From a virus (lineage: Duplodnaviria > Heunggongvirae > Uroviricota > Caudoviricetes): DNA of 19,931 nucleotides. This document shows, in pieces, positions 1,674 through 9,471 of the stretch. Position numbers and translations under genes: made by a program. The number at the start of each line of letters is the position of its first letter. Position 1 is the first letter of the stretch. The notes beneath the pieces were generated by a model. That model was not told the origin of the DNA. It ran no database searches and was given only the letters and a program-made list of their open reading frames with translations. The stretch is taken from IMG/VR virus record IMGVR_UViG_2690316049_000008, positions 1 to 19,931 of that record; one strand, 5' to 3'.

Positions 1674-1700
1674 CCGCACGCTTATCGCGTGCGGTTTTTT
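1674..1700 (+). terminator. Rho-independent terminator (perfect 8-bp GC-rich stem, 5-nt loop, T6 tract)
   Basis: CCGCACGC (1674-1681), loop TTATC, GCGTGCGG (1687-1694), then TTTTTT (1695-1700), 7 nt after the stop of the small plus-strand ORF. On the minus strand the same hairpin lies just past the stop of the convergent membrane-protein gene but has no U-tract, so it is mainly a plus-strand terminator. Confidence 0.75.
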
Positions 1701-3060
1701 ATTTTTTAGGCAATATATAGTATATTGCCTTATATGAAAAATATACAAATGATACAGTTATTATATTTTTTAAGAAAATAAATAAAAAGAATTCAAGGCT
1801 CTCCCTTGCCATAAAAAATGAAAAAGGCATTGTCATAAGTGCAGCTATTTGTATTACGCCAACTCTCCTCATCAATATGATTTTATCAAGAAATCTAAAA
1901 ACAACGCCTGAGATAACATATGAGCACCAGAAAAAATACTTTCCGAAAATAACAAGCGATGACCCAAGCAAAGTTGATGCCATATTCAATCCATTGCTAA
2001 GACCAAGAGCACTCACGGTAAAGTAATATGAGCTATTCATTGTGACAATTGGTTTGTCAGGCCATATGAATCTTGGGATAAACCCTGAAAATTGAGTAAA
2101 GAAATAATAGATACCACCAACATTGCGATCATTGCTAAAGTATTTAACAGCTATACTCTGATAATTGATAGGAGATACGCTATCAGCTAAATATCTTACT
2201 ATAATGCCAAACAGAGAGCCAGACTCTGAAATATCAACATCTGAGTATCTCACTATAGCCATTATACCAATTAGAATTAAGCACGCAGAGCCTATGCATA
2301 TTAACTTCAATATGCCAATTAGGCCTCTAGAGTGACAAATAAGAGCAACAATAAACATTGCGGAAAACATTACATTTCTTGAGCCACCAATAAGCACATA
2401 ATATGCCATCCCAAATAACAATGACATTATAATTGATTTAACGAACACATACTTATCGTCAGATGTAATTGCATACACTATAACAGCAGAAACAAAAGAT
2501 GACATTATCATTATAATAACACCACTACCAGCATTTCCGCCAAGCTTTAAAGCATAATCATCAGAATTAAAAGATATGCCGTTTATGGCATAAAAAGCCA
2601 TCATCCCAACAAAACTTAAAAACAACGTTGTTCTTACAAATAATTTTGGGCTACCAATAAAATATTTATCAGAAAATGTTATTTTATTTCTTCCTGCCGC
2701 TGTATGAGAGAATACATAAAACAAAACTATACCAATAAACGACAACGTAGACACATCATTTATATATTGATACGGCATATATTCTGCAGAACTAACTTTT
2801 GCCCCAACTCTAAACGGAAGCGATATATACCCAAAAAAATGAGTAAAAACAAGGAATAACATCCCAACAGATTTGAATGACACGCCATGTTTTTTGAATG
2901 ACACGGCACTTAAATATATTAATGTTATGGCATACAACGCAGGTAGCACATAAGTAAAAAATGATTCATAAATATTCATAATATTGTATGTAAAAATGAC
3001 TATTTTTACCCGATCTTTAAAGAAAGTACAGGATGATAGCGCGTTTCTACGCGCCATCAT
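1699..3060 (-). CDS. Polytopic inner-membrane protein (~11-12 predicted TM helices); probable Wzy/WaaL-like O-antigen polymerase or ligase-type surface-polysaccharide protein
   Basis: ORF with stop at 1699-1701. Hydrophobic throughout, with many 18-24-residue hydrophobic segments and one longer, less hydrophobic stretch (roughly residues 275-350) that could be a large periplasmic loop, as in Wzy/WaaL proteins. Extremely AT-rich and Ile/Phe/Tyr/Asn-rich, unlike the neighbouring phage genes. Start is ambiguous: GTG 3066 (overlaps the tailspike stop as GTGA), ATG 3060 or ATG 3057. An AAGGTGA Shine-Dalgarno that contains the tailspike TGA stop sits 2 and 5 nt upstream of the two ATGs, implying translational coupling. 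The functional call is inference from topology, composition and position, not from a recognised motif. Confidence 0.8.
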   Translation of the reverse strand: MMARRNALSSCTFFKDRVKIVIFTYNIMNIYESFFTYVLPALYAITLIYLSAVSFKKHGVSFKSVGMLFLVFTHFFGYISLPFRVGAKVSSAEYMPYQYINDVSTLSFIGIVLFYVFSHTAAGRNKITFSDKYFIGSPKLFVRTTLFLSFVGMMAFYAINGISFNSDDYALKLGGNAGSGVIIMIMSSFVSAVIVYAITSDDKYVFVKSIIMSLLFGMAYYVLIGGSRNVMFSAMFIVALICHSRGLIGILKLICIGSACLILIGIMAIVRYSDVDISESGSLFGIIVRYLADSVSPINYQSIAVKYFSNDRNVGGIYYFFTQFSGFIPRFIWPDKPIVTMNSSYYFTVSALGLSNGLNMASTLLGSSLVIFGKYFFWCSYVISGVVFRFLDKIILMRRVGVIQIAALMTMPFSFFMARESLEFFLFIFLKNIITVSFVYFSYKAIYYILPKK

Positions 3061-3062
3061 AG

Positions 3063-5243
3063 TCACCTTACAACAAATTTGCCATTGCTAATGTCGTTAA
3101 CTAGTGTTGCCACTATGTTAGCAATATCCTTAGTAGATAGGGTGTTTACGTCTCCACCGCGTAACGCACCGGAATTGGTAAATGGATACTGCTGAGGTTG
3201 TGAGCTATTGGCAAACTGGTTGTTAGCCTCATAACGTTTTGTTGGTACAGGGTTGTACCCAATACTACCTGTGGTTGTGTCAGGGGCCACACAGTTCGTA
3301 ATGTTCACTATAGCGTCAGAACCACTACCATTTGTATATATTGGCCTGTTAACTGTCCCGAATGGTTGCACAGCTACCAGCCTGTTAACAATAACACTCT
3401 GTGTGGCTAGTGCTTGTAAATAAGATTCTGCGCTTCCATTGCACCCCCTCAAGTTCACATTATCAACCTCTATGTGGCGGCAGTTAATGATGACGATATA
3501 ATGCCCATTTTCTGTGTTAGGGTAAGCGCCTACTATGCGAACATTTTTTAATGTTAAATCTGTGGTTGGCACCGCAGCAGGCCCACCGTTGAAAACAAAC
3601 CCTTTTGCACCATTTACAAGTGCGTGTATCGTAATGCCGTCAAACTCGATGTCGGCAAGATTAGTCGTGGTATTGGCTGAGTTTCTCAAAAAATAAACAG
3701 CTTCAGCAGAGCAACCTGATATCAAGAAGTTAGAAAAACGCATCCTTGTGTTTTCTACCGGATAGAAGCGGCATAACAAACCCTGCGAGCAGTTACGAAT
3801 AACAACGTTATCGTAGGATACGTCACTAGCTCCTTCAATTGCGACACCTGCGTTCGAACTTTCTACATATAGTCCAGTAACTACTCCATTACGGAAATTC
3901 CCTCGAAGACCGTGGCTTTCACAGTTTTTGATTGTAACGGCGTTTATGTTAACTCTTGTGATAGCTGTGCCATCACCATAACCGTTCATAAGGTCGTCTG
4001 ACTGAATACGCAAACCGTTACCACCAGAGGTATTAATGCTCACATCGTGAATCATAAGATTAAGCGTACGGTTTGGGCGACGTGATGAGAAGAACAAAGA
4101 TGAGGCCCAAGTGTTTCTGCAACGGATATGATGGACGTGCGCCTCTGTGGGGTCATTAACAATGATCGCCATGCCAGTTCGGTTGCTGCCATCTGGATCT
4201 TGAATTTTCCCACGACCACAATCATGTGAGTACAGATTATCGGCAAGAACCCATCTCCCATAATCCATCGTTACGTTGCTATTCCATGCCCCCTGCAATT
4301 CACACCCTGAAAGCTCAAGTGTACCTGCAGATTGCATGGCCAAACCAACCCCTGGGTCAAATGAAGCATTCTGCCGATAAAAATCAAACAAGAAATTACC
4401 GACAATGCGTATATCATATGGAGTATAGTCAAACTCTTGATTTGATTCGTTCCATGTCCGTGGGGATCTGAGCCATAATTGTCTGGAATCTACCGTCACT
4501 TTTGGCAATAACGGCTTTATGAGGATGTCTCCCTGAATATTAAATATACCTTCTACAGTTACGGGAGAGTAAGCGATCCCGATATTTCCAGATAGTGGAA
4601 GTAGTCTACTAAGTTGAGCGTCATTTTGTGCAATTTTCCAACCAGAATTAACCTCGTTAAAAAATGATATTGGGTAAAGTTCAATATTATCATTAATTAC
4701 AGTTGAGTCATAACTGGTAATTGTCAATGGTGATGATAATGGTGTGCTCATCATCATAAGGGCGCCATCAAGCCTAACGAATCTTACACCTTCGGGAATT
4801 AAGTCTCCTATTTTTGCATCAATTCCAATTTTATTAGGATAAACCTCACCACCTAAAAATCCATTCATTCCTCGAAGCCAAGATAGATTTAACATGACTG
4901 ATAACTGATCTGGATCGTACTTCAGCACATTAGGGAAATAGAACTGCTGTGATCCATATGCATCGTACACAGCCATAGAATGCCATTGTACAGTAACGAA
5001 CTTAGCAATCTGTCCGTTATATACAGGGTAGCCAGCAGCGTTAATAATTATTGGTTGCGAAACGGGAATGTGAGAGCCGTCTTCGTTCTCCACATAAACC
5101 TGAATTTGGTTTTCAGGATTTACCGGGTCCGTGTCAATTTTACCGATATAAATTTTGCCATTGGCTACGGCTTTAAAAGAACGAGCCATAGTGAAGAGTT
5201 GCGAAGGCATGCTTACCACAACATTGGCTGTAATGTCTGTCAT
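3063..5243 (-). CDS. Tailspike protein with P22/Sf6-type N-terminal head-binding domain and a divergent C-terminal receptor-binding domain
   Basis: 726-aa ORF. The first ~115 residues ([46 protein letters not shown]...NVLKYDPDQ) match, from memory, the conserved head-binding domain of P22 gp9 and Sf6/HK620 tailspikes. The remainder is Asn/Gly/Ser/Thr-rich with repetitive short beta-strand-like segments, consistent with a parallel beta-helix glycanase domain. GC drops after about nt 4900. SD GGAG lies 9 nt upstream of the ATG. Confidence 0.93.
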
Positions 5244-5338: not shown

Positions 5339-5416
5339 ATGCAAAGAGATCTGTTGAACATTGCGTTCTACATAGTTGGTTTTTGCACGTTCCTGGTGTT
5401 TGCGAAGCTATTCTGA
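5339..5416 (+). CDS. Hypothetical 25-aa hydrophobic peptide (MQRDLLNIAFYIVGFCTFLVFAKLF), antisense to the late operon
   Basis: ATG at 5339 preceded by GAGGTGA (5328-5334) at 4-nt spacing; stop TGA at 5414-5416. Overlaps the 3' end of the gp16-like gene by 9 nt on the opposite strand. The peptide is one predicted TM helix. Too short for the ORF track, no homology evidence, could be chance. Confidence 0.2.
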   Translation: MQRDLLNIAFYIVGFCTFLVFAKLF

Positions 5417-7405
5417 CAACGCATCAGACTTGGCCCCCTGAGTCAGGGCGTTAATGGCCTTTTGCGCCTGCTGCATGGCTTTCTCAAACGCTGTTGATCC
5501 GCGTGGTGTACTTGCCATTCTGAGCATTGCATTTCTGAATGGCTCGCTCTCATAGGCGCGAGTAAGAAGTCCGTAGCTTACTGCTGCGCCAGTTGTTGCA
5601 GGGTTCATTGCCGTCCCATACCCGATAATGAACGGGATGGTTTGCTGCCCTGTTGGTGTTGTTACTGCCGCTTTTGCAGCCTGCTGCGTGGATTGCAGGT
5701 AGTTTTTCAATCCTTTCAGATAAGCAGCGTCCTGCCCCTTAAATGTGATGCCAGTCTGGTTTTGCAGGATGTTAAGCTGCCGAAGGAACTGGTCAGGGGA
5801 TCCTCCAGATTTCTCCATCGCCTTTCCAATAATGCCATTGCGCATTTGCGCCCTGCCAACACGACCAACTGAGTTATACAGAGTCTTAATTTCCGATTTG
5901 TTCTTGCTGAATAGCATGTTGTTGACAACTTCCGGCGTCAGATCGCCTTTCATGAGAACATTCTTCAGCCTGGTATTCTTTAGTTTAGCCGCTTCGTCAG
6001 CGTAGACGGCATTGGCCTGCTGATATTTACGGAGAGTATCGTTGCCAAGATTCTGTCCAATGGCACCATTGATATCGTCGGTCATTGCCTTGTAAACGCG
6101 CTGAATGGCAGCATCGGAACGGTTTGGTAACACTGGTCGCTCACCCTTCACGTCCATTCTGAACTGGCTGCGCAGATCGCTTAATTGCTTCAAATCCAGA
6201 TTTACCGGACCATCAGGACCAGCATTGCGAACAAGCTCATCACGATAGGACTGAAGTTTTGAAATAGTCTCGTTATCAGCTACCTTACCAAGCTTCTGCA
6301 GATTAGATATTTCTGTATCAATCTGCTGAATTGCTCGTGCAGGCTGAATGTTTACTCCTGCCATAGCATTCTGAACCCGCTCCAGTCGATTACCTGCGGC
6401 ACGACGAATTCCTGATGTTTTCGCTTTAAGGCTGTCAATAACAACAGCTGGATCATACTCACCGAATTTATCAGCAAATCTCTGCACCAACTGGCTTCTC
6501 GCTTCCTGTTGCGTTGCTCTCATTCCGCTTGTGCCAGCCAGAGGGATATTTTCTGCTGTAGTCTGCGCCATTTTTCCGACGCGGGAAGTTGGGTGTAACA
6601 GGTCTGTGGTGTGCAGAGGAACACCTTCACGCTCTGCAAATCTGATAGCCTGCTGCGCTTCTGGCGCAATAGCACCACGAACGCCACGATAAGCAGCACC
6701 TAATCCACGTCCGGCAGCGTTAATAGCACCGCCAGCAAGTACACCAACGCCTAAATCGGTGGCGAGTGCTTCCGCATCATCTTTCGCACTATTTGCAGCA
6801 AGTGATCCAACTGCGTTTTCTGCGAGAAGGCGAGTTGCACCCTGAGCAATTCGACCAGCAAGTGTTGGTGCCTGTGTTGCAGCTCTCTCAACTCCAGCAG
6901 GAGTGAGGTAAGGCAATGCTTCAGCAAATACCCTTCCCTCTGTCGTTTGTGGAGTCAGCACGCCTTGCTGAAGGCCAAAGTCCTGCTCTAATCCCTGCGT
7001 TGTTACTCGTGGCGCTGGTTGATATGTCCCATCGCCAATGCCAAGTTTACCGCCAGCCCAAGCCGCCGCGCTTGTTACAGCATCGGCAACTGATGCAGGT
7101 ATGTTTGCCACGTTCACGCCAGCCTGTACCAGTCCGCGACCAGTCTCTTTTACTGCTTCGCCAAGATCAGACATAAATCCACTTTGCTGTGGTTGTTGCT
7201 GTGCTACTGGCTGTTGTGTCTCCACTGGCTGCACAGATGGCAATGGATAGGCAGCATAGAAAGCTTGCTTAGCCTGCTCTGCATTTTCTCCGGCTTGCGG
7301 GGCCACGACTTCATTGAAGTATTGCTCCTGAGCCTGCGCTTTTTGTTCTGGTGCTAACGCCTGATACTGTGGAGAGGCGATAACATCTTTCCATGCTTTA
7401 GCCAT
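5408..7405 (-). CDS. Ejection (injection) protein, P22 gp16-like
   Basis: 665-aa ORF, third of three consecutive ejection-protein genes in the P22 order gp7-gp20-gp16, directly upstream of the tailspike. Ala/Gln/Gly-rich low-complexity composition typical of these proteins. ATG at 7405 overlaps the upstream stop as TAATG; SD GGGGTGA. Confidence 0.8.
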   Translation of the reverse strand: MAKAWKDVIASPQYQALAPEQKAQAQEQYFNEVVAPQAGENAEQAKQAFYAAYPLPSVQPVETQQPVAQQQPQQSGFMSDLGEAVKETGRGLVQAGVNVANIPASVADAVTSAAAWAGGKLGIGDGTYQPAPRVTTQGLEQDFGLQQGVLTPQTTEGRVFAEALPYLTPAGVERAATQAPTLAGRIAQGATRLLAENAVGSLAANSAKDDAEALATDLGVGVLAGGAINAAGRGLGAAYRGVRGAIAPEAQQAIRFAEREGVPLHTTDLLHPTSRVGKMAQTTAENIPLAGTSGMRATQQEARSQLVQRFADKFGEYDPAVVIDSLKAKTSGIRRAAGNRLERVQNAMAGVNIQPARAIQQIDTEISNLQKLGKVADNETISKLQSYRDELVRNAGPDGPVNLDLKQLSDLRSQFRMDVKGERPVLPNRSDAAIQRVYKAMTDDINGAIGQNLGNDTLRKYQQANAVYADEAAKLKNTRLKNVLMKGDLTPEVVNNMLFSKNKSEIKTLYNSVGRVGRAQMRNGIIGKAMEKSGGSPDQFLRQLNILQNQTGITFKGQDAAYLKGLKNYLQSTQQAAKAAVTTPTGQQTIPFIIGYGTAMNPATTGAAVSYGLLTRAYESEPFRNAMLRMASTPRGSTAFEKAMQQAQKAINALTQGAKSDALSE

Positions 7406-8799
7406 TAATCACCCCATAGTGAAGAAAAGTTACTGCTGGCTGCTGGTTGTGATACCTGTGCAGGTTGAGATTGCTGCCGCTGAGATTTACCAACATTAAC
7501 GTTATATTGTTGGTTGTAATTGTTGGTGTATTCCTGAATCTCACGAATCGACTGCTGCATAGCCTCCGGGCTTGAATAGTCAACCTGCGGCATCCCCTGA
7601 AAATACATCTTCGCTTCTGCAACGGTGTTAATACCACTGGCCCCCATGTCCCTTGCTGCCGCCACACCCTGATTCTGCATTCTGCCCTGAATACGTTGTG
7701 CTGAGTTATATAACTGGCGCTGCTCTTTTCCTGTTAATCGGCTGCGAACATCAGCACCAATTGCCGGGTTACCTGCGCCGCCGGTCATTCCTGTCATGAA
7801 ATCGAGAGCAGAAGCGTCTGCATTTGCGATCGCGTCGATATCCTTCTTCATGGCATAGTTTTGTGCTGATGCAGACGATGTTGCAGGCGCTGCGATTGAA
7901 CTGGCAGGAACGCGAACCATATTCCCCTCGTTGTCGATGCCTTCGTAGAACGCATTTGCCCCAGCGCCGTGAAGTTTCCCGCCAACCGTTACAGTTCTGC
8001 CATCTGATAACTGAACTGTACGCTCATCATTCCCAGCGGTTCCTCTTGTTGACGCTCGCTGCATTGCCAAATCCTGCCCGCGTCGCGCAGTAGAAGCAGA
8101 TAAATCCTGACCGCGCATCGTGATGTTCTGACCTCGTGCTGTTAGCGCCTCTCCAGCCTGATTGCTGCGGATTGTCTCTGCAAGTTTTCCGCGATCAATC
8201 TCACGCCCAACGATTCTGTCTTGCGCCTGAAAATATTGTTCTGGACCAAGTGCAGCCATTCCAAGGTGATCAACAAACTCTGTGAAACCTTGTGGATTTT
8301 GCTGATACATTTTCGCCACATCCAGAGGGTCTACTCCGGCACGAGTAAGCTCAGATGAGTTGTTCTGCAACCATGACATCATGGCTTCTGGAGATGAAGC
8401 TGCCAGTCTGGCACTTGCTGCCAGTGTGCCGACAGTGGAACGCTGGTCTTCATCGACAAATTTCATGCCGTTTCTTACAGCGTCAAACTGCTCAGGATAC
8501 TGTGATGCCAGTTTTCGCATTGCATCGCGGTCACCAGATGTATATGCATCAGCATAAGCCTGCTGAAACTCTTGCTGTCGCTTCTGCTGATCCATCTGCT
8601 TATACATATCCATGACAGATGAAATGCCCTGCAAAGCCTGCAAGCCAACGTTATTACGTCCTGAACGCTCCATCTCGTTATTCTGTCGAATGTATGCAAG
8701 CGTGGCGTCTGCATCACTTGCTCTTGGAGCGTTGGAGTTCATGCCGCCTAACCCGGCAAGAAGCGCGCCTGAATTACCAGCCTGTTGCCATGTAGCCAA
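7405..8799 (-). CDS. Ejection (injection) protein, P22 gp20-like
   Basis: 464-aa ORF in the position and size class of P22 gp20. The first codon at 8799 is TTG, preceded by a strong SD GGAGGTG at ~5-nt spacing immediately after the upstream stop, so a TTG start is likely. Confidence 0.8.
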
Positions 8800-8811
8800 G
8801 AGACACCTCCA

Positions 8812-9471
8812 TTAAAACAGTGAACCAAGAAGGCCGACGCCAGCACCAATTGCTGTACCCCAACCAGGCATGATTGCAGTACCCATCGCAGCACCTGCCG
8901 CAGCTCCACCGAGAGCACTCTGAAAACCAGACGGTTTATTGGCATTTGCTGCCGCTGCCGCCGCCTGCTGTTGATACAATTGGCTGACGTTGTTAGCGTA
9001 GTTCTGCCCGGCGTTTGCCTGACCTGTAAGAGCACCAAGGCCAATGTTTGCCAGATTGTTGTAGTTGTTCATCTGACCTGACAGCCAGTTTTGACCGAGT
9101 GTAGGTGCGATTGCTGCTAACTGGTTTCCTGTTGCTGTAGAGCCTAATCCACCCGTTGCCTCTGCTGCAGCAAGACTCTGATAGCGCGCCTGCCCTGCAA
9201 GGTCTTTATACTGCTGGGAGTTGTAATACTGGTTAAGCGCCTGACCTTGCCCCTGAAGAGAGGAAAGATTCTGCAACTGTGATACGTACTGCTGAGCGAG
9301 TGGCGTGAACGGTGCAAGGTTCTGCATGTTTGTCTGCCACATTTCACGCTGCAATTCGATACCCTTTTCAGTTGCGCGTGCCTGGGCTTTAGAGCCGGAG
9401 TCGCTGCCGCCTTTCATGTACCCATTCATGGGAAGCAATTTATTCTTGAAGCTTTCGCTAAGTACCAACAT
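8812..9471 (-). CDS. Ejection (injection) protein, P22 gp7-like
   Basis: 219-aa ORF with a Gly/Ala/Gln-rich C-terminus ending in a hydrophobic Gly-rich tail, and a KGGSDSGSKAQARATE motif resembling P22 gp7. ATG at 9471 is preceded by GAGGAG at 7-nt spacing. Overlaps the gp14-like gene by 14 nt. Confidence 0.8.
   Translation of the reverse strand: MLVLSESFKNKLLPMNGYMKGGSDSGSKAQARATEKGIELQREMWQTNMQNLAPFTPLAQQYVSQLQNLSSLQGQGQALNQYYNSQQYKDLAGQARYQSLAAAEATGGLGSTATGNQLAAIAPTLGQNWLSGQMNNYNNLANIGLGALTGQANAGQNYANNVSQLYQQQAAAAAANANKPSGFQSALGGAAAGAAMGTAIMPGWGTAIGAGVGLLGSLF

Follow-up and report, generated by a model that had tools for sequence, protein, structure and literature searches.

The gp20 protein of phage P22 is packaged in the virion, ejected into the host and forms a trans-envelope channel (PMC4992974, PMC8954989). 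It is the most abundant of the P22 ejection proteins, with about 30 copies per virion compared with about 12 each of gp7 and gp16 (PMC4992974). The genes for this protein in P22 (gene 20), Sf6 (gene 12) and HK620 (gene 20) belong, like the gene described here, to Pfam family PF16928. In all four cases the gene is located between gp7-like and gp16-like genes, encodes a common N-terminus, (M)ATWQQ...LAG(I/L)GG..N.NAP, starts 9–12 nt past the gene 7 stop, and ends in a stop codon that overlaps the start of the next gene. Our subject is the initiation codon of this gene in an Escherichia coli prophage, which is TTG. UUG is a canonical start codon in E. coli, where it opens approximately 3% of genes, is read by fMet-tRNA and yields 10–100% of the output of AUG in reporters (bioRxiv 10.1101/063800). 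Evolutionary switches from AUG to UUG are generally selected against, and switches to UUG or GUG tend to bring a stronger Shine–Dalgarno (SD) sequence (Belinky, Rogozin and Koonin 2017, PMC5622118).

The window, by which we mean the whole 19,931-nt stretch of DNA that was analysed, comes from an E. coli prophage of the Sf6-like Lederbergvirus kind and covers the end of its late operon; it is 94.5–96.1% identical to phages vB_EcoP-683R2, Gally, Sf6 and HF4s over 65–70% of its length. An integrase gene lies at the left end on the plus strand. The minus strand carries, in order, a terminase-size ORF, the portal gene (P22_portal), scaffold-size and coat-size ORFs, gp4-like and gp10-like genes, a tail needle gene with an Sf6-type knob, a DUF2824 (gp14) gene, the gp7-like gene (P22_gp7), the gp20-like gene, a gene at the gp16 position, a tailspike gene (Head_binding N-terminus) and a gene for a Wzy-like polymerase. 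The features relevant to the junction of genes 7 and 20 are as follows.

8812..9471, minus strand: gp7-like ejection protein gene, 219 aa (Pfam PF25688 P22_gp7, E=9.5e-92)
8804..8810, minus strand: Shine–Dalgarno sequence GGAGGTG, its GGAGG core 6 nt upstream of the TTG, with strong pairing to the 16S 3′ end
8797..8799, minus strand: TTG, predicted initiation codon of the gp20-like gene; the sole start after the in-frame stop, aligned with the ATG of homologues
8740..8742, minus strand: codon 20, the first in-frame ATG, rejected as an alternative start; without a usable SD and not conserved
7405..8799, minus strand: gp20-like ejection (DNA transfer) protein gene, 464 codons, TTG start (Pfam PF16928 Inj_translocase)
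5408..7405, minus strand: gp16-like gene, 665 aa, from the ORF list, at the same position as Sf6 gene 13, with a stop/start overlap with gene 20

The assignment of the central gene to the gp20-like ejection proteins, which the initial annotation had made, was borne out by the PF16928 match, by the gp14-gp7-gp20-gp16 gene order and by the close DNA match to Lederbergvirus genomes (Sf6, Gally and HF4s). The product scored 243.5 bits against PF16928 (E=2.7e-72), exceeding the gathering cut-off of 29.7, with residues 13–227 matching positions 2–217 of the 218-position profile, which is described as ‘DNA/protein translocase of phage P22 injectosome’. In the operon the gene follows the tail needle and gp14 genes and is flanked by the gp7-like gene on one side and the gp16-like gene on the other, an order shared with Sf6, P22 and HK620. 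Its TAA stop has one nucleotide in common with the ATG of the gp16-like gene (TAATG), the gp7-like CDS is annotated identically by PGAP in E. coli EC9, and the late genes around it are intact. A profile search with the gp16-like gene returned no Pfam match, and a PDB sequence search with gp20 returned no matching chain or solved structure. By homology with P22, the gp20-like protein would be carried in the virion and enter the host by ejection, there to form the trans-envelope channel.

Read 5′ to 3′ on the minus strand, the end of gene 7 (GGT TCA CTG TTT TAA, the stop at 8814-8812) is followed by a single t, GGAGGTG (8810-8804), TCTC (8803-8800) and TTG (8799-8797), and the gp20-like reading frame continues GCT ACA TGG CAA CAG GCT GGT AAT. 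The gene 7 stop shares the reading frame of the gp20-like ORF and lies 12 nt upstream of its start, so only four codons, TGG AGG TGT CTC, separate the in-frame TAA from the TTG. None of the four is a canonical (ATG/GTG/TTG) or near-cognate (CTG/ATT/ATC/ATA) start, and the TTG was also the first codon of the ORF in the ORF listing (7405..8799, minus strand). The TTG had been proposed as the only in-frame start near the upstream stop, with a strong GGAGGTG about 5 nt upstream and the next in-frame methionine 19 codons downstream without an SD. The first and last of these points hold: the four intervening codons cannot serve as starts, and the next in-frame ATG (8742-8740) is preceded by GGGTTAGGCGGC, in which the sole SD-like element, AGGCGG, is 1 nt away and too close to work. 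The strength of the SD was likewise confirmed, but the spacing required correction, being 4 nt after GGAGGTG and 6 nt after the GGAGG core; the latter distance is functional by a criterion of about 5–9 nt from the core.

Neither motif was statistically enriched in the window, where bare GGAGGTG was seen twice (1.4 expected) and GGAGG-N3-8-TTG also twice (2.8 expected). The significance of the motif therefore comes from position and homology, that is, from its placement between two conserved genes, in a gap of 12 nt, and from the alignment of the TTG with the ATG start of all characterised relatives. We found no mRNA structure sequestering the SD or the start. Shuffled sequences fold better than the initiation region (z=+1.56), which is thus likely accessible. 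A further ATG (8791-8789, ac-ATG-g), the only one near the SD, is out of frame. It lies 14 nt from the GGAGG core, opens an ORF of five codons (ATG GCA ACA GGC TGG TAA) and is absent from other alleles, existing only owing to the ACA at codon 3, where other alleles have ACT, ACG or ACC; it was rejected as a start.

Comparison with homologous genes, which had been suggested as a check on the start codon, places the TTG in exact alignment with the ATG of relatives, namely P22, Sf6, HK620, Gally, vB_EcoP-683R2, Louie, vB_EcoP-720R6 and an IMG/VR relative (L087). The products of these ATG-start genes begin MATW(Q/N), and those of P22, Sf6, HK620, Gally and Louie begin MATWQ. ATG is the commonest start codon, and the first in-frame ATG of the window gene is codon 20; it could be argued on these grounds that translation starts there and that the TTG and the 19 codons from it form an untranslated leader, a reading with which the Inj_translocase profile match, beginning only at residue 13, would agree. 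The codons in question, however, do not behave as a leader. When the window is compared with five other alleles, codons 2–19 show 5–10 synonymous changes at conserved residues and 4–7 non-synonymous changes, and this synonymous excess indicates that the stretch is under protein-coding constraint and is translated; the same codons belong to the annotated P22, Sf6 and HK620 proteins.

The methionine at codon 20, by contrast, is not conserved. The residue is valine in the Sf6 type and glutamine in the P22, HK620 and Louie types, and the codon is CTG (leucine) even in one contig of the TTG allele (L017). A natural recombinant (L107) joins the window-type end of gene 7, the SD, the TTG and about three codons to an HK620-type gene 20, in which codon 20 is CAA and no methionine is nearby. 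A start at codon 20 would in addition leave the strong SD 63 nt upstream, serving nothing, and would have to make do with an SD-like element 1 nt from the ATG. The conservation of codons 2–19, the unconserved methionine and the missing SD thus rule out the downstream start, to which we assign very little probability. Because of the homologous starts, the codon constraint, the unconserved codon 20 and the recombinant, the TTG is, on sequence comparison, predicted to be the only possible start of the gp20-like gene, with the downstream methionine excluded. In the papers covered by a full-text literature search, no experimental N-terminus was found for gp20 of the window allele, P22 or Sf6.

The shared frame of the two genes raises a different possibility, that gp20 is made as a gp7-gp20 fusion by readthrough of the gene 7 stop codon and needs no separate start. 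The stop and the gp20 ORF are in one frame both in the window, with its 12-nt gap, and in the Sf6-type allele, with a 9-nt gap. In P22, however, a gap of 10 nt puts the two genes in different frames, and the lack of conservation of the shared frame rules out such a fusion. The gene 7 stop is also TAA, the tightest stop codon, and a dedicated SD lies within the gap. In the P22 virion, gp7 and gp20 are separate proteins (PMC4992974). We regard readthrough as so improbable that it can be set aside in favour of independent initiation at the TTG.

The TTG allele is widespread. Among the 80 closest IMG/VR relatives together with GenBank and RefSeq loci, TTG was present in 25 loci encoding 18 distinct proteins of 433–477 aa, and in all 25 the SD and TTG were invariant, with no base variation from −18 to +18 of the start. 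The first ~180 codons are essentially identical (about 100%) in most of these loci, and several unrelated mosaic types can be distinguished among the C-terminal halves; the SD and TTG are joined to at least ten gp20 lengths or mosaic forms, every one with an intact ORF. We then scanned IMG/VR with the pattern ATGGAGGTGTCTC-N-TGGCTAC, in which the first base of the start codon was left free, and carried out a reciprocal scan with the GGGG-type context GGGGTAATC, which matched at least 120 contigs. TTG was present in 41 of 41 contigs with the GGAGGTG context and ATG in all 120 of the contigs listed for the GGGG type, but the contigs are related and the association between SD and start codon represents only about four to five independent alleles, so that the two counts are not independent and do not prove compensation statistically. 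The pattern scan of genome contigs beyond IMG/VR gave a single, unrelated chance match in an Actinoallomurus MAG.

In bacterial genomes, the 60-nt junction was found at ≥96.6% identity in 38 of the 5,426 complete sequences of E. coli searched, these 38 coming from unrelated hosts in different countries. In two strains, 0H24 and 0H26, it is also present on a separate circular replicon of 39,448 bp, which is probably the excised phage genome. Prophages decay, the window is itself a prophage, and in one related prophage of E. coli (19KM1831) frameshifts interrupt the gp14-like and gp16-like genes; the TTG could accordingly be imagined as a sequencing error, or as an ATG lost by mutation in a degenerating element, the gene then not being properly expressed. 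Such an explanation is hard to reconcile with an identical SD and TTG in 41 viral contigs and with the junction in 38 complete E. coli genomes, and this recurrence, together with the intact ORFs of the different gp20 forms, rules it out. The intact late genes neighbouring the start in the window, and the two strains that carry the element as a separate 39.4-kb circle, point the same way, and the chance that the TTG is an artefact or a lesion seems to us negligible. These comparisons show where the gene starts, and that the arrangement around the start is conserved and widespread.

The TTG start is already in the public annotation. The RefSeq (PGAP) CDS started on the TTG in six of six E. coli records inspected, and the window protein is identical to RefSeq WP_021527634.1, ‘phage DNA ejection protein’, and identical in five retrieved loci. 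Starts of this kind are, moreover, commonplace in the genes of bacteria and phages. The start call of the initial annotation is therefore upheld by the homologous ATG, the constraint on codons 2–19, the unconserved methionine at codon 20 and the RefSeq annotation of the same junction.

The SD of the TTG allele is exceptional in strength. Its duplex with the anti-SD was calculated at −10.6, −13.1 and −14.5 kcal/mol for anti-SD sequences of 9, 10 and 13 nt, respectively. This was the strongest pairing among the 14 late-gene starts scored in the window, the next-best late gene reaching −9.0 kcal/mol with the 10-nt anti-SD, and also the strongest of any gene 7/20 junction allele. The ATG alleles gave −8.6 to −11.5 kcal/mol with the 13-nt anti-SD and −8.2 to −8.6 kcal/mol with the 9-nt anti-SD, the advantage of the TTG allele being only ~2 kcal/mol in the latter case. 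We estimated initiation with a crude thermodynamic model that combines the SD duplex and a start-codon term and subtracts local mRNA folding, with start-codon energies that we take to be those of the Salis RBS Calculator. In this crude model the ATG alleles initiate at 0.2–2 times the rate of the TTG allele, which thus falls inside the ATG range. Among the junction alleles, TTG was found with no SD other than the strongest. As an observation in its own right, the start codon and the SD vary together naturally at this junction, GGAGG going with TTG and GGGG with ATG, and a recombinant has arisen in nature.

These estimates bear on the expectation, raised when the TTG was first noted, that a non-ATG start lowers the level of the ejection protein. 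A stronger form of this idea is that TTG deliberately tunes gp20 down, giving less protein than in ATG relatives or making synthesis dependent on IF3 or on coupling to gene 7, and so sets the stoichiometry of the ejection proteins. UUG output is below that of AUG in the same context (10–100%; bioRxiv 10.1101/063800), AUG-to-UUG switches are generally selected against (PMC5622118), and replacing TTG with ATG in silico raised the modelled rate and never lowered it. The increase was only 1.3-fold, however. No other SD in the operon pairs as strongly as the one before the TTG, and the rate modelled for this allele is one that the ATG alleles span. Nor is there an obvious need to lower gp20, which outnumbers the other ejection proteins in P22 (PMC4992974). 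No ATG variant occurs in the 41 contigs, although ATG is one mutation away. This would fit selection for TTG or a young allele, but is also explicable by low diversity, the first ~180 codons being ~100% identical in most TTG loci. We therefore consider down-tuning unlikely, and the predicted loss of expression was not supported. The strong SD most likely makes up for the weaker codon, so that gp20 output would probably be similar to that of the ATG alleles and not reduced. We infer this compensation, which is plausible, from the strongest SD, the unstructured region, the modelled rate within the ATG range and the published trend for start-codon switches (PMC5622118).

Taken together, these results make it very likely that the gp20-like gene starts at the TTG at 8799-8797, that initiation there is directed by GGAGGTG and yields fMet, that the junction is one of several alleles, and that its SD offsets the weaker codon. 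Under the model that we favour, the TTG would be decoded as fMet, and initiation would be directed by the SD directly after the gene 7 stop, with the GGAGG core 6 nt upstream. The combination of strong SD and TTG would be one of several alternative initiation regions at P22-like gene 7/20 junctions, the others combining weaker SDs (GGGG, GGTGGG or GAGGAG) with ATG, and the strong SD would provide for a roughly normal supply of gp20. Ribosomes terminating on gene 7, 12 nt upstream, may reinitiate at the TTG; such coupling is geometrically plausible, and one form of the down-tuning idea invokes it as well. The identity of the N-terminal residue, the coupling to gene 7 and the compensation are thus predictions of the model.

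A more specific proposal is that the strong SD and TTG form a co-adapted cassette, in which TTG is kept by selection and which recombines between gene 20 alleles, as in L107, altering gp20 output relative to a weak SD with ATG. We think this improbable. Were it true, gp20 synthesis could, for example, depend more heavily on IF3 discrimination or on the supply of ribosomes coming off gene 7, and the gp7:gp20 ratio required for the ejection channel would thereby be fixed.

For the gene itself, the matter is one of annotation quality only and opens no new question: the TTG start gives the full 464-aa gp20 with its conserved MATWQ N-terminus instead of a protein truncated by 19 residues. The contrast between junction alleles could serve for measuring how the stoichiometry of the ejection proteins is set in P22-like phages.

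Compared with the described phages, the window differs at the junction and in the distal part of the gene. P22, Sf6 and HK620 have ATG behind the weaker SD AAGGGG and a gap of 9–10 nt, whereas the window has TTG behind GGAGGTG and a gap of 12 nt, and the C-terminal half of its gp20 is a different mosaic module from theirs. In having ATG-start orthologues with weaker SDs, the window gene resembles the genes that follow the general trend for UUG and GUG starts (PMC5622118), although that study dealt with substitutions along a tree, and here it is mosaic alleles of one phage gene, exchanged by recombination, that are contrasted at the level of sequence. The gene for WP_021527634.1 in E. coli prophages shows no difference at all, its coding sequence and junction being identical to those of the window and its start the same TTG. 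As in the canonical UUG-start genes of E. coli, the window gene combines UUG with an SD at optimal spacing.

Two GTG codons appear as starts of virion genes in the mechanical ORF listing of the window, each with an ATG available downstream:

9928, minus strand, GTG listed as the start of the gp14-like gene
17369, minus strand, GTG listed as the start of the portal gene

Neither was retained. The codon directly after the first is an ATG (9925), the start used by PGAP, and the portal frame has an ATG 24 codons downstream (MAETLEKK...), just beyond the end of the terminase ORF. Both GTG calls are mechanical, which leaves the TTG of gene 20 as the one start other than ATG that is credible for any virion gene of the window.

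The module that begins at this TTG, approximately 180 aa at the N-terminus of gp20, is about 100% identical in most of the loci compared, and is attached to several mutually unrelated C-terminal halves, giving proteins of 433 to 490 aa. The mosaic part in the window is:

7405-8260, minus strand, C-terminal half of gp20 (mosaicism also seen in loci L006-L008, L033, L064 and L070)

A passage of PMC10461980, citing Casjens and Thuman-Commike 2011, describes intragenic mosaicism of P22-like ejection proteins; the varied C-terminal halves are that known mosaicism and are not new. From its sequence, the IMG/VR relative IMGVR_UViG_2534682160_000015 (L107) is a natural recombinant: at about 7500-7650 it carries the gene 7 end of the window's allele, GGAGGTG and the TTG, and roughly three codons into the gene its sequence becomes that of a gene 20 of the HK620 type, with the crossover inside the conserved GCTAC.TGGCA stretch.

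A related prophage in E. coli 0H26 and 0H24 is present both in the chromosome and as a 39,448-bp circular record (NZ_CP081786.1, L254, and NZ_CP081778.1) labelled 'plasmid unnamed 4', with the TTG junction of the window. The circle is probably an excised, replicating phage genome caught in the assembly. The scan of genome contigs with the 21-nt junction pattern gave a single match, in an Actinoallomurus MAG (JAOPYG010000011.1, L133, 3764-3784), which was rejected as a gp20 homologue and attributed to chance: ATG replaces TTG, and the 122-aa ORF that it opens (MATPTTGINP...) is unrelated.

Two further minus-strand ORFs of the window merit description:

1699-3066, minus strand, WzyE-like ORF, 455 aa
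5408-7405, minus strand, ejection protein at the gp16 position of the late operon, 665 aa

The first lies between the tailspike gene, whose stop it overlaps by 4 nt, and the integrase. It matches the O-antigen assembly polymerase family WzyE of Pfam (PF06899, E=8.8e-19) and looks like an O-antigen polymerase carried by the prophage, with a possible role in serotype conversion; its true start is probably an ATG 2 or 3 codons past the mechanical GTG (VTMMARR...). The gp16-position protein gave no Pfam match at E<=0.001 and is labelled 'hypothetical protein' by PGAP, which calls a different allele at this position, in E. coli 19KM1831, a 'lytic transglycosylase domain-containing protein'. At 665 aa, the window's protein is equal in length to Sf6 gp13.
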